DNA of 64,000 nucleotides from Octopus vulgaris (taxonomy: Eukaryota), in the NCBI GenBank assembly GCA_951406725.2, contig OX597823.1, positions 59,706,001-59,770,000 of the forward strand, read 5' to 3'. This document shows positions 2,450 to 59,241 of this stretch, in pieces. The notes under the pieces were generated by a model, which made no database searches, was not told the DNA's origin, and saw only the letters and a program-made list of their open reading frames with translations. The stretch's first letter is position 1; each line of letters starts with the position of its first letter. The position numbers and the translations under genes were made by a program.

Positions 2450-4380
2450 ATTATCTCTAATACGTTTCTAGTAACAGAAAGCTTCTACACATGAAGTAGA
2501 GTTTAATAAACAAATCATGTATCTGATCTTACTAGTTGCATTCTGAAAAATACATTATTGTTCTTGTTTCCGTATCTCTCCTTTTAAATTCGATAATTCA
2601 ATTAGCATTCATTTAAGAACATAATAAGTTTATGACTGTATAAATACCTATTACCTTAATTTTGCATTTAGCTATTAACCTAATGCATCTGTAATAGCTT
2701 TCTTACCTGTGTATTTTTCTTTATATAGGTTTCATTCCTTAGTATTTGCAAATTTGATTTGGATCTAATTCTCTTCCCTCTGTTTCTTCCTCTAACATGA
2801 TATTAACAATGTTTATTTACTTTCTTAAACACGAGGATGAATTTATATAAATTCCTCCTATGAGGTTGTGCACTCTCTGGAGCAGAGTTTCTAGTTGTTT
2901 ATTATCTTCAGCATGCAACTTGAGGTCACCCACATGTAAACTATGATTAATGGAACTCCACAAAGCATTTTAATCGAAGCCTGTTGTTGTTGTTCAGGCA
3001 AAATAGAAGGGATAGGATTCGTTTTTATTGTTCTTTCCTTTGTTTGTATCAACTGACTGATTTCCCCATTTTTGTCTTATGTTTTACGTTTCCACTCATT
3101 ATTATTTATGTAGAGAACACAGTCAAAATCCTTCAGGTAGTCAATCAGTTTTATGCACAAATTCTTCTTTTTTTACTCTATAGTCATCAATCGTTGGTTT
3201 TGTAAATTAATAATTAATCTTTACAATCATTTGAGTCGTGGCAACCTCACCATTGTTATTCTGAAATTGAGCTCTTTTGTTTTACTTTTCGTCTGCAACA
3301 CCTCTGGCTATAAAAAGACAGAATATAGGTCCACAATCTCTAGTGTTTGCTGTTCTTTGGGATTAAGATCATTTTCTCCTTAACTACTCAGGTATTGTTT
3401 CGTCTCTTTCAATAGGTCATTAAGTATTTTTGCCAGTACATCATGCATACCTGTTAAATATTTCAACAAGAAATCTGAATTTTATTAATTCCTGATGCCT
3501 TCCAGCTACTTCTTGTTATATATTATTATTTGTAGTACTTAGGCTTCTTTTTCAGTCCATGTGCTTCATTTGTTTTAATCATTCACATCTTATTGTGATT
3601 CTTTCATTGTCTGCACTCCTACTCAAATTATTATTGTTCTCTTGCTGTTGGCAATACACTGATTTCTAGTTTTCAGTATCTACTTTTTGGTGGAATTGCG
3701 TAGGTGGATTCGAAAAGGATGGGTTCTTCGTGATTTAATAAGGATCTCTTGTTTTATAGGTTCTTTGATCCCTGCTACTTTTCTCTGATTATGTTCTTTT
3801 CTTAAGTACGTGTCTCTGCTTTCTATTCACTTGAATTTTTTTTGTTAGTTTGTTTTAATTTCTCATCGGTTTCATTAAGGATTTACAGTTATTTTTATAT
3901 TATTTTCTATCTCCTCAATAATTTTCCAGTGTGGTTTCGTTCATCACAGTGATATTGATGTTTGCATCTATTTTCATTAAGTATGTGATGGCCAGTTTTT
4001 GTGCTTTTCATTGTTGTTATTCTATCATTAAGTTTTATTTTTGGAAGAGTATTTCACTAGGCTATAAGATCTCTTATCGATTTTAATTCTTTAACTATTT
4101 CCATTTTTATATTATTGTCATATTTATAATTTCCATATTTAGAATTTTCTACACTTGAATTTATCTCTTTTTTTTCATTTATTCATATTTTCATTATGTT
4201 ATTCTTGGTTTGGCTTTTGTTGGTCAGTATTCTGTAGGTGGTTTGAATTGTTGTGTATTTTTATCTTATTTGTTGTGCATGTGGTAGGTCTATTTTCAAG
4301 CCTTATATTCTAAACGTTTCTAACTTTACTGTCTTTATTCTCACTGCTTGCATTTTTGTTGCTTGTGTTTTGATTATCCT
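2450..4380 (-). mobile_element. Decayed R4/Dong-like non-LTR retrotransposon RT region
   Basis: Degenerate minus-strand motifs occur in the correct order: WKASGINKIQ (~3475-3507, cf. WKAPGPDGIQ), IDYLKDF (~3125-3146, cf. IDYKKAFD), INHSLHVGDLKLHAE (~2907-2951, cf. INHLLYMDDLKLYA) and KY*GM (~2731-2747, cf. YKYLG). There are many stops and the boundaries are approximate. Confidence 0.6.
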
Positions 4381-55286: not shown

Positions 55287-55321
55287 GCTTAACGTTTCGA
55301 GCGGAGCTCTTCGTCAGGAAC
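55287..55321 (-). ncRNA. Minimal hammerhead relic in a Penelope-type terminal repeat (~55187-55389)
   Basis: The minus strand reads GTTC-CTGACGA-A-GAGC-TCC-GCTC-GAAA-CG-TT-AAGC. Stem II is perfect, stem III is the palindromic AACGTT, and stem I is weakened. Confidence 0.6.
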
Positions 55322-55389
55322 ATAGGAAAAGGAAAGATCCAGAGAAGGGAAGACGGGGGGAAAAATCGCCAACGGTACACACGCAGTCA

Positions 55390-55939: not shown

Positions 55940-57044
55940 TCAGGTTGAGTAAAAAGTAAGTAACGCTTTGAACCAAGAAGAATTTGTACCAGATTTTTTT
56001 GCAGAGTTTTGAATTTTTTAAAAAATTTTTTGCAATTTTCTGATAATACAGACATAGACTTGCCCAACTGCATCAATAAAGTAACATTGATATTTTTTTC
56101 ACCGTTGTAATAATCATCTGAAATAGAACAGTCAAAACGCGATATTTGAGCAATTTTGCTATTCAAAAAAAGGTCGTAAAGCAGCTGAAACTGCTCGCGA
56201 TATCAACGAAACGTTTGGTGAGGAAATGACCAGTAAGTGGTCAACTCGAAAATGATTTAAACGATTTCACAGGGGAGTCCTGAGCCTTGAAGATCGTGAG
56301 CGTAGTGGACGTCCATCTGTCATCAATGACAGTCAATTAAAGACCGTCATTGAGAAAGATACATGTAAAACCACTCGATAACTAGCAAAAAGACTTCAAA
56401 TTGGCCAGAAAACTGCGTGTAACCATTTGGATGCGATCGGAAAATCAAAAAAGCTTGACAAATGTGTACCACACAATTTGAATAAAAATTAGAAAATGTG
56501 CAGATATGAAATTTGCTCGTCGTTTCTTCTTTGCAACCAGACCGATCCATTTCTCGACCATACTGTAACTTGCGAGGAAAAGTGGATTCTGTACAATAAT
56601 AAAAAACGTTCTTCTCAGTGGTTGTACCAAAATGAAGCACCGAAAACCTTCTCTAAACCCGAGCTCTTCAAAAAGAAGGTTATGGTAATTTTTTGGTGGT
56701 ATACTGCTGGACTCATCCCCTATAACTTCTTAAAACTCGGACAAAATATTATGGCAGAAACATTGCCATGAAATTGCCAAAATGAACGAAAACCTGCTAC
56801 TCCTCCGTCCTAGACTGATCAACAGAAGAGGGTCAATCATTCTTCATGACAATGCTCGACTACACGTTTCCCTACCAACACTCCAGAAGTTGAGGAAACT
56901 TGGCTACGAAGTTCTTCTCCAACAAGTTTATTCCTCAGACCTTTCTCTTTTTCAAGCACCTTGTTCAAAAATCAAACCGATGCCCAAAGTGCGTTCAAAG
57001 AGTTCGTCAGCTTCAGAACTCCAGATTTTTATGTTACCCGGAAT
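55940..57044 (+). mobile_element. Mariner DNA transposon (Hsmar1/SETMAR-like transposase), 3' end lost
   Basis: It starts TA|TCAGGTTG. The transposase remnant reads KAAETARDINETFGE...LEDRERSGRPS...KKLDKCVPHNL...TVTCEEKWILYNN...ILHDNARLHV...YSSDLS...FYVT. It is truncated where the 57045 element begins. Confidence 0.9.
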
Positions 57045-57271
57045 AAGCGTCGATGCCTCCTAGGGCTAAACAGCAGTGGTGTAATTCCCTTACGGGGCTG
57101 TCATGTTATGTTGACAGTATACAACCACTCTATCGCTCCACCACCGCTCATGTCTCTTTGAGACATTTAGAAATTTAATATTTCTAATTACGGTGACCAG
57201 TGAATAGATTTCACTGTAAATATATATATTTGCGAAAGCTAGACAGGCATCTCAACCAGCAGGTCTCGCTA

Positions 57272-58954
57272 CTTGGAAGTGTTTGTGTGGGATTTTCGAT
57301 TTTGCGGTTGTGAGTTGGATTTTGCTGATTATTGTTGATGAAAACTGTTGCGTCGTGTTGAACGTTATAATTGTTGAATTCTTTGTTGGGTATGCAAGCC
57401 CAAACTTATGCGGGTGCAGCAGGCAAAGGCCTGGCTGCGAACGAATTACAGTTGGAAGAAATAATTGTCGAGAAGGAAAATTTGAGGAAATACTACGACA
57501 GCTTCAAGAAGGAAGGTGACTGTCTGAGGGTTACACCACCTGAAGAAGAAGTGAAAGAAACGGAGAAAAAATCATAACATACAGAACATGGAATGTGGTC
57601 TCAAAGAGAATAGAAGTAGCAGAGGTGAAAGAGATTGAGAAATGTCTACAGGAAATTAAAGGAAGAACTACCTTCTACAATAGAGGTAGAAAATACGCAA
57701 CGGTAGACGTTCGTTTTGAAAATAAAGACGAAGCGAAGAGGAATGCAACGACAGTGCTGAGATCGGAAAAATGGGTTTTACTTCCTAGTTATTGTGGAAA
57801 AAGAGCAGTTAGGATACGAATAAGCAAAATCCCACCGGAACTTGATACCGAAAGAATAGTAGCTGCAATAATCTACAACTGCAAAGAGAGCGTGGACATA
57901 CTTAAGGTGGAAAAGTCGAAAGAAATAAACTGGTGGGGTTATGCGGTGCAGGCTTCGGTCCACATAACCATGCCAGATTTGTATAACATCACGGAGGAGT
58001 TGGTGTTCCCCGACGAGACACGACTGAGAGTCGTGGTGGAGAGGAGACCTCCAGTGTGTTATAAGTGTAAGAGCAGAGGGCACATGAAGGATGTGTGTCC
58101 TCAAAGAGAATTACAAGAGAAGATGATAGCACTGGAGGAAGGAATGGAGGCTTTGACAGAGGAGTTAGAAAAGGAGAATATGGAATTGCAGCGGAAGAGG
58201 AAATCGTGACAACAGATAATGTGGAAAGTGGCGACGAGTTAGGGAAGTAGAAAGAAAAGGAAAGAACAGAAGAAAAAGAGGATAGAAAGCAAACACGGGT
58301 GGGACAACCACCCAAAGACCAAAAAAAGAAAAAAACTAAAAAGAAGTCTGCCGATGATACAGAGGATCGAACGCACGAAGGGAGTGATACAGCAACTAAA
58401 GTGAGTGAAGGTTCAACGTGGTATGAAACGGAAAAATGGTCAACAAAAGTGGAAGAATGTCTGAAAACATGCAAGGAAGGAGGAAGACCAAAAGGAAGAA
58501 ATCTCAAAGCGGTAATGTTGTACAAAAAGGATAAAGAAATTGAGAAAAAATTAGCGATAATGATAAATCTAACAAGAGTGAAATTGAACCCGAGGATATA
58601 CGATATCCAAATAAAGGCTGCAATTGTGGATAAAGAGACGGTAAAAAAATTAATAAATTTGTTTTCAAATACAGCTGTGTGCATAGCGCACTACGTTCGA
58701 TATGACAGTTTGCTCGGCGTTACAGAACAGGATGAATTACTCGTTTACATTACTGACGAACACTCCAGATAGTACAACTGTAATTGTAAATGAAACTGCG
58801 AGCTTTGGGGGGCTCGTAAGCCATTTCATTTAATTCATTATTTATATTTCACTTCATATCATCCCTTCTGTATTTTTGTTATATGTACCCCATGTCCTGC
58901 ATTGAATTGTTATGTCGCCTCTTGATTAGGGCTATTGTGCCTATAATAAAGATA
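57272..58954 (+). mobile_element. ORF1-only Tx1/L1-like non-LTR element with 21-bp TSD
   Basis: Flanked by CTCAACCAGCAGGTCTCGCTA (57251-57271) and CTCAACCATCAGGTCTCACTA (58955-58975). It has a GT-rich 5' UTR, a zinc-knuckle ORF and a T-rich 3' UTR ending AATAAAGATA. Confidence 0.7.
57392..58772 (+). pseudogene. Gag-like/ORF1 protein with RRM-like region and CCHC zinc knuckle, split over three frames
   Basis: It begins MQAQTYAGAAG and continues YATVDVRFENKDEA...RIRISKIPPEL...RPPVCYKCKSRGHMKDVCP (CX2CX4HX4C), then a coiled-coil/charged tail. The segments 57371-57577, 57595-58209 and 58299-58772 are in different frames. Confidence 0.75.
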
Positions 58955-58976
58955 CTCAACCATCAGGTCTCACTAT

Positions 58977-59023
58977 CCTGGGCTGATGACGAGTTAAGAC
59001 CCAGAAACATGCATGTCCTCAGG
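58977..59023 (+). ncRNA. Type I hammerhead ribozyme (putative; stem II partly mutated)
   Basis: CCTGGG-CTGATGA-CGAGTTAAGACCCA-GAAA-CATGCATG-TC-CTCAGG. It has a 6-bp stem I, an intact core, a palindromic stem III (ACATGCATGT) and a GUC site (predicted cut after 59017). Confidence 0.75.
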
Positions 59024-59184
59024 TGTGAATCCTAGCTGGTGGGAGTGCTTGCCTCCCCTTCGCAAATATAAGGACACAGGAAATGTGTCAAAGCCGACAG
59101 GAAGCGTCGATGCCTCCTAGGGCTAAACAGCGGTGGTGTAATTCCCTTACGGGACTGTCACGTTATGTCGACAGTATACAACCA

Positions 59185-59241
<57 letters not shown>

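Follow-up and report, generated by a model that had tools for sequence, protein, structure and literature searches.

Does the LINE that sits directly beside a hammerhead ribozyme in the genome of Octopus vulgaris target that ribozyme, travel together with it as one unit, or follow some other cue at the site? We addressed this question in a window of 64,000 nucleotides (contig OX597823.1, positions 59,706,001 to 59,770,000; the window means this whole stretch, and its positions and plus strand are used below) and in related copies elsewhere in the genome. An insert of 1683 bp (57272-58954) lies between a left (57251-57271) and a right (58955-58975) target-site duplication that are identical at 19 of 21 positions, and the best match to this 21-bp sequence in the rest of the window, on either strand, reaches at most 16/21, which confirms the near-perfect duplication described in an earlier note on this DNA. 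The last bases of the left repeat, together with CTT, recur at the 5' junctions of copies at four different loci (L001, L006, L008, and L010) and, judged by this recurrence, are probably the head of a donor RNA, in which case the real duplication likely falls a few bases short of 21. The insert carries one gag-like open reading frame, ORF1 (from the ATG at 57392 to the TAG at 58772), which is interrupted by internal stops and shifts frame twice, and which contains a CX2CX4HX4C zinc knuckle (58054-58104) whose match to zf-CCHC (PF00098, E 0.0011) is weaker than the curated cut-off. Neither the list of open reading frames nor a domain search gave an APE or RT within the insert. Its conserved 3' end motif (58937-58952) includes the AATAAA (58945-58950), is not followed by poly(A), and ends in 10 bases, ATAATAAAGA, that are common to an autonomous partner. 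The earlier description of a single gag-like frame without endonuclease or RT and with AATAAA downstream is therefore upheld, with a weak knuckle match and a broken frame.

The insert interrupts a non-coding host unit of ~374 nt that resembles a non-LTR retrozyme, with its upstream part at 57045-57250 and its downstream part at 59024-59188, where it reaches the family's usual 3' end and adjoins a (CT)n(TA)n microsatellite. The first 94 nt of the unit (57045-57138) are repeated at 59102-59195, exactly 2057 bp further on, so the 2057-bp composite noted earlier is real. Between the insert and the downstream part stands a type I hammerhead motif with a palindromic stem III (58977-59023), which begins 1 nt after the right repeat, as had been claimed, and whose predicted cut (after 59017) lies 63 nt past the end of the element. 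For the window copy, the best reading is that it inserted independently into a host unit of the usual kind. Directly upstream of this unit lies a decayed mariner transposase remnant (56150-57044; PF01359, E 5e-15). A second hammerhead-like core (CTGACGA...GAAAC) that belongs to another repeat family is present on the minus strand at 55300-55330 of the window, and also at L039, L101, and L143.

A DNA search of the 2.8-Gb genome with the insert yielded 310 candidates, of which the best 40 were scored; most of these were near full length with the same ends, as were most of the 30 best loci, which places the window insert in a dispersed family. Intact natural ORF1 frames were found in L022, L029, L077, L069, and L074 (~440-480 aa from stop to stop; 460 aa counted from the first Met in L022), and their layout comprises tandem RRM-like folds, a CCHC knuckle, a charged linker, and a small C-terminal domain. 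The fold comparison suggested in the earlier note, run on a structure model from 20 natural sequences (mean pLDDT 62.7, ~80 for the N-terminal half), gave tandem-RRM proteins as the best match (E 2e-4, with a low whole-chain TM-score) and put no name on the C-terminal domain. When six intact ORF1s were compared by a simple counting method, dN/dS for the N-terminal 250 residues was 0.08-0.26 in 15 of 15 pairs. The ORF1 of this ORF1-only lineage is under purifying selection. Further, more divergent short families have the same 3' end and, where checked, ORF1-like frames. The sole named ORF1 homologue is from Octopus bimaculoides, and the nearest named homologues come from O. bimaculoides and Argonauta hians.

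The autonomous partner that the earlier note proposed searching for, with the same end and an APE-RT, is present. At L064 an APE-RT-zinc-finger ORF2 lies upstream of an ORF1-only copy and ends in the same last 10 bases, and a search with this ORF2 region returned many copies that are ~96% identical. Both frames exist intact: an ORF1 of 499 aa (L128) and an ORF2 of 1134-1140 aa (L126, L135, L149, and L150), with a natural 1132-aa ORF of L149 carrying PF03372, PF00078, and PF13966 (APE, RT, and C-terminal zinc finger, respectively). Between the autonomous ORF1 and the protein of the ORF1-only elements there is clear homology (E ~1e-35) at 22-25% identity. Placement of the partner lineage in the L1 group is supported, and the closest solved structure to its ORF2 is human L1 ORF2p (E 4e-66 versus 3e-23 for R2). 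Membership in the Tx1 clade is likely, and leans on RT features and on an ORF1 with RRM-like domains and a CCHC knuckle, both present here, which we take to be typical of that clade; NCBIfam and cluster names gave no clade name, and the protein homologues found were unnamed or hypothetical.

We then asked where the elements insert. The 16-nt tail motif occurs 210 times in the genome, compared with 3 occurrences of a control. An unselected sample of 60 stretches, covering 62 of the first 68 tail-motif sites listed (6 were left out), contained a true element tail at 56 sites. Of these tails, 44 are joined to a hammerhead unit or its first bases (42 by alignment score and 2 by eye) and 12 lie elsewhere. 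Most copies thus share one target, as the earlier note expected of a site-specific element, and do not lie in unrelated random flanks, as it expected of a one-off insertion. The hammerhead units that host inserts fall into approximately five sequence types, and the exact tail-plus-hammerhead-core pattern has 163 matches genome-wide, compared with 4 for a reversed control. Among the best 30 autonomous loci, 29 have the 3' end, which by eye lies at a host-unit site in 24, at base 1 of U2 in 4, and elsewhere in 1. Both the sampled ends (44/56) and the autonomous ends (28/29) exceed the 20% of flanks that is used to call target preference in Tx1 LINEs (PMC4494074; this and the other papers are cited from excerpts). 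Different families are stacked at one site at L064, L080, L076, L120, and L285, and assembled contigs of sequencing runs bridge the empty site in three out of four runs. Duplications in 32 full-length copies measure 13-26 nt (13-21 nt in 30 of them).

The same lineage also inserts into snRNA genes. Exact junctions between the tail and base 1 of U2 number six genome-wide, and one of these is an ORF1-only copy between the U2 promoter and U2 base 1 (L198/L291). There is one junction with U1, a 5'-truncated case without U1 promoter or flank on its left. Two U2 clusters (G000:C3:20.77-20.84 Mb, L175-L188, and C23:43.31 Mb, L128 and L156) hold autonomous copies inserted at base 1, two of them in tandem, and two different types of U2 promoter are used. 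No insertions were found among 15 U5 loci, 20 U1 loci, or 20 U6 loci (many of them pseudogenes) examined. Off-target copies have their own 15-17-nt duplications at unrelated sites, and because an Rfam scan of 20 off-target or unexplained loci returned only one 5S gene, ~3 kb from L091, these sites are not other known RNA genes. At L091 itself (~1-1000 and 2950-3300), an ORF1-only copy lies in an ~80-nt tandem repeat near 5S that is probably 5S spacer.

These dissimilar targets have an upstream motif in common. ATCAGT(G/C) is found 56-61 nt before +1 in 20 of 20 U1 loci (-57 to -59), in 23 of 26 empty U2 loci (-57 to -61), and in 13 of 15 U5 loci; it precedes none of the 20 U6 loci, many of which are pseudogenes. 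The proximal sequence element (PSE) of vertebrate snRNA genes lies ~60 bp upstream of the start (PMC4494074), and by the analogy of position we infer that ATCAGT(G/C) is the Pol II snRNA PSE of this animal. All host-unit types carry the motif 53-60 nt before the insertion site, and they differ from one another around the insertion point apart from AT(C); every target starts with AT, and most with ATC. In the window, a PSE-like variant (ACCAGTG, 57196-57202) of putative promoter function is followed by a TA-rich, possibly TATA-like stretch (57217-57229) ~30 nt before the predicted transcription start, an ATC at 57249-57251 that lies 53 nt from the start of the motif. In its strict form the motif stands in front of 21 of the 32 full-length copies of the ORF1-only type versus 0.75% of 6400 control windows, where the 21 are not independent events, the motif being short and the host copies related. 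For intact autonomous 5' ends, with one mismatch allowed, the motif is present in 16 out of 18, at 57-60 nt in 15. It is absent upstream of L025 and L111, the two full-length off-target copies checked. The position of the nick differs by subfamily, from ~-4 to ~+10 around +1 (~14 nt). Two autonomous copies in an inverted pair of host units stand head to head, each with its own promoter motif (L127/L129, L155).

Since the same lineage is found at base 1 of U2 and, once, at U1, where there is no hammerhead, what is targeted is more aptly called the +1 of an snRNA-type promoter, and not the ribozyme. The inference in the earlier note of a Tx1-family lineage that targets this retrozyme survives in part: the site-specific lineage, its ORF1-only derivative, and its autonomous partner stand, and the ribozyme as the target falls with the U2 and U1 insertions. 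U6 genes with a real-looking promoter (L229-L233, L222, and L224) have a different motif, TATGC(A/T)AAT(T/G)AG, ~70 nt upstream together with a TATA box, so the Pol II and Pol III snRNA promoters of this animal seem to use distinct elements.

The 5' heads of the elements bear on where their RNAs began. Three autonomous copies in U2 genes (L156, L159, and L165) carry U2 bases 1-14 followed by the first bases of a hammerhead-unit type, a copy in a GT microsatellite (L009) starts with U1 base 1, and L002 and L003 have a local duplication followed by a second head that starts at the predicted ATC; the heads show microhomology with the target. Because heads start at the +1 of a different target, the donor RNAs likely began at the +1 of a host promoter. 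U1 and U2 heads have been accounted for by template switching (PMC4494074); the heads here match insertion at +1. Template switching to abundant small RNAs, as in the SINEU proposal, could explain the U1 head, but it also requires unit RNAs that start at that ATC.

We consider it fairly probable that an ORF1-only LINE of the L1 group, probably of the Tx1 clade, inserts at the predicted start of snRNA-type promoters and likely borrows them. We propose that the host promoter would drive an RNA that starts at +1 and runs through the head, the element, and then the host, and that the partner ORF2 would act in trans on the ORF1-only RNA, copying it by target-primed reverse transcription. Position would decide the site, either because the machinery touches the initiation complex on the PSE or because the DNA is open at +1, with a loose sequence preference. 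The abundant hammerhead units would be landing pads that can be lost without harm, which protects the essential U genes. The hammerhead may shorten read-through RNA to a point 63 nt beyond the element end, and a filled unit may now and then be carried by the host's own Penelope-like machinery. The distance from the promoter element is nearly fixed across dissimilar targets, as such positional targeting predicts. The ~14 nt that the nick register spans between subfamilies count against a rigid tether, the 12 of 56 sampled ends off target, the absence of insertions from the 15 U5 and 20 U1 loci, and the truncated state of the lone U1 case count against promoter targeting, and some reading of sequence at the target is possible, as all targets begin with AT. 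A fuller version is slightly less likely than not to be correct: the LINE would read the SNAPc/PSE complex and land at the +1 of any U1/U2-type promoter, its load would have shifted to thousands of promoter-mimicking retrozymes, its ORF1-only satellites would be kept under selection with ORF1p possibly acting as the tether, and filled units would sometimes be re-mobilised by the host.

The usual explanation for target-specific LINEs in animals is that their endonuclease reads the target sequence. Applied here, a sequence-reading APE would select the site, helped by read-through RNA that carries target sequence and pairs with the DNA at the nick, and the link with promoters would only reflect which inserts come to be transcribed and give rise to new subfamilies. 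This reading is in line with the role ascribed to the endonuclease in Tx1 target choice (PMC4494074), with the AT(C) at +1 that targets have in common, with the differences between subfamilies in nick register and favoured host types, and with the microhomology of heads. However, one autonomous family that is 96% identical occupies both U2 base 1 and unit types that differ beyond 3-4 bases, no other feature is as constant as the distance to the upstream motif, and selection of donors alone leaves unexplained that roughly four-fifths of the sampled copies hit the target. On balance we regard classical targeting, the main rival to promoter parasitism, as rather unlikely.

The earlier note had also inferred that the composite now replicates as one self-cleaving, nucleocapsid-encoding unit. 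A protein-coding retrozyme of this kind would move by the Penelope-like route of its host, and several loci seem to bear the marks of that route. Five loci join a truncated insert, hammerhead, and host tail to an inverted copy, without promoter or duplication: both inverted arms hold the insert 3' end, the hammerhead, and the host tail in L098/L035, L282, and L021, and in L019 and L101 the inverted arm that adjoins a truncated insert is host sequence. No duplication could be detected at several further truncated copies. Copies that are inverted and 5'-truncated have been described as a signature of PLEs (PMC8557442), and the host units themselves show 5' truncation and inverted copies of this kind, the latter in 10 of 29 host loci (two of which are one locus), so hitchhiking of filled units with the host's PLE-like machinery probably occurs; later DNA rearrangement is also possible. 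As the main mode of spread, however, the composite is ruled out by the scatter of filled hosts on the host tree and the changes of host type on the insert tree. Filled hosts (19 of 50 rows) require 13 changes on the host tree and never a single change in 200 bootstraps, numbers to be read with 56 of 500 shuffles being as low as 13 and with doubtful labels in the tree (L049 is filled yet labelled empty, and the tail of L044 is very short). The insert tree requires 12 changes of host type, compared with a minimum of 5 and 24 when shuffled, and this partial clustering by host type could reflect RNA homing or co-mobilisation just as readily as shared age. Inserts 92-94% identical to that of the window (L002 and L003) lie in a host type only 76-78% like the window's, copies with the head of the window copy lie in different host variants and are each locally duplicated, and the family is also present at the U2 gene (L198/L291) and at unrelated sites with 15-17-nt duplications. 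The ~2.06-kb tandem units that co-mobilisation might leave are absent from the fetched loci. We therefore find it improbable that the filled unit replicates as one, and what is left of the earlier inference is its weak form, in which some composites show the host's inverted-duplication signature. As for the parent of the host unit, a GIY-YIG fragment by L064 was considered and dropped, since the 3' region of that PLE family (25 loci) has no match to the unit. The PLE family with RT and GIY-YIG at L241-L265 is very abundant (16721 candidates, best 150 scored) and has open frames of up to 717 aa; the 500 nt that follow its matched region contain no hammerhead core of canonical form.

A lineage that targets the hammerhead itself, for the sake of a ribozyme-made 3' end, would explain why most insertions lie 20-40 nt before a core with a covarying stem I and why the elements have no poly(A). 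The identity of the motif at 58977-59023 leans on the hammerhead core motif and on covariation in stem I; the window copy has one mismatch in stem II, and a scan of the window at Rfam gathering scores gave no hit. Across 63 junction-adjacent motifs, stem I retained 5.29 of 6 pairs versus 3.76 when shuffled (maximum 4.21 in 500), with the partner strand taken as the best of the allowed positions and with related rows, and it shows compensatory changes between host types. At 10.1-11.1, the pair that closes stem II, host types A, B, and E have a non-canonical C-A or T-T and the others G-C. The active fold was not recovered by energy minimisation of either the monomer or the dimer, a result that we weigh neither for nor against the ribozyme. 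When stem III is a short palindrome, as here, hammerheads need a dimer and cleave poorly as single copies (PMC4209133), which argues against a ribozyme-made end, as do the U2 and U1 insertions without ribozyme and a distance to the core that differs between host types more than the distance to the promoter motif does. If the predicted activity is real, a cut 63 nt beyond the element may give a 3' end, but it cannot be required given the U2 insertions, and we judge targeting of the hammerhead highly improbable. The last reading, in which the window insert is a two-ORF LINE of the usual kind that lost its interior in a single event and came to lie here by chance, fits the broken frame of the window copy and is almost certainly wrong, being refuted by dozens of dispersed, near-full-length copies of the same length, several ORF1-only families, purifying selection at the dN/dS given above, and an ORF1 only 22-25% identical to those of the aligned autonomous families. 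Same-length dispersed copies with an intact, constrained ORF1 indicate that the ORF1-only elements are long-lived lineages and not one-off deletions, and the HAL1-like derivative proposed earlier is borne out: an ORF1 without ORF2 has multiplied as such.

Insertion at snRNA-type promoter starts, the reading we prefer, can be compared with known systems. Tx1-clade LINEs include Keno in U2, Tx1L in Tx1D, and Tx1-Mar in Mariner-N4_AMi (PMC4494074), and the octopus lineage resembles this clade in its APE-bearing two-ORF structure, a multicopy RNA gene or mobile element as target, tandem stacks, U1/U2 heads, and a suggested dependence on flanking transcription (PMC4494074). Keno and Utopia cut inside U2, with a downstream flank from nucleotide 39 (PMC4640811), whereas here the downstream flank starts at about U2 base 1 in six junctions; by these junction sequences the lineage is not Keno. 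Moreover, unlike target-specific Tx1 elements, one family here uses several unrelated targets with a common promoter motif. HAL1 (half-L1) is a non-autonomous, ORF1-only derivative of mammalian L1 (PMC5753468). The octopus elements are likewise ORF1-only and non-autonomous with a 3' end common to an autonomous relative, but they form a site-specific mollusc lineage of L1/Tx1 type with several divergent families, and are an analogue of HAL1 and not a member.

Position-specific insertion near the starts of small-RNA genes is also known from Dictyostelium TRE5-A and NLTR-A and from yeast Ty3, which follow Pol III tRNA or 5S promoters (PMC5911963). TRE5-A belongs to the L1 group, has the APE-RT-zf layout, and encodes an ORF1p that binds TFIIIB; TRE5 inserts 40-54 bp upstream in the opposite orientation (PMC5911963). 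Here, by contrast, the cue would be a PSE-type (U1/U2/U5) promoter and insertion is at the predicted +1 in sense orientation. By analogy, the octopod lineage most likely works like TRE5/Ty3 targeting moved to Pol II snRNA promoters. The host unit, in turn, resembles metazoan non-LTR retrozymes (170-400 nt, type I hammerhead, PLE-like integration; PMC7229834; bioRxiv 10.64898/2026.07.22.740005) in size, hammerhead type, and PLE-like integration, and it resembles hammerhead-bearing newt satellite 2, for which an snRNA-type promoter was reported (PMC2220036, citing Coats 1994), in its snRNA-type promoter motif. It differs from retrozymes as these excerpts describe them in forming dispersed partial tandems in a mollusc that serve as landing pads for LINEs and at times carry them. 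A study of O. vulgaris repeats reports 13 recently active L1-Tx1 families, and the main text of that paper, as excerpted, makes no mention of hammerhead, retrozyme, or snRNA (PMC13282606). In the open literature, apart from Repbase, supplements, and most subscription journals, we found no LINE that targets hammerhead repeats or snRNA starts. Each ingredient has a precedent (target-specific Tx1, HAL1, and retrozymes with an snRNA promoter), and the combination was not found in that literature.

Because one LINE family uses several sites that differ in sequence but have a Pol II snRNA promoter motif in common, tethering becomes directly testable in an animal, and the copies with intact ORF1 and ORF2 make assays feasible. 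A position-specific APE-type integrase would also be of interest for safe-harbour gene insertion. Promoter capture would offer a simple origin for U1/U2-headed retroposons, whose transcription has been called an open question (PMC4494074). With the octopus host unit, a mollusc retrozyme joins newt satellite 2 in bearing a promoter motif of snRNA type. If our reading is true, the hammerhead unit, the autonomous LINE, and its ORF1-only satellites would make up a parasite system of three tiers that depends on a single promoter element.
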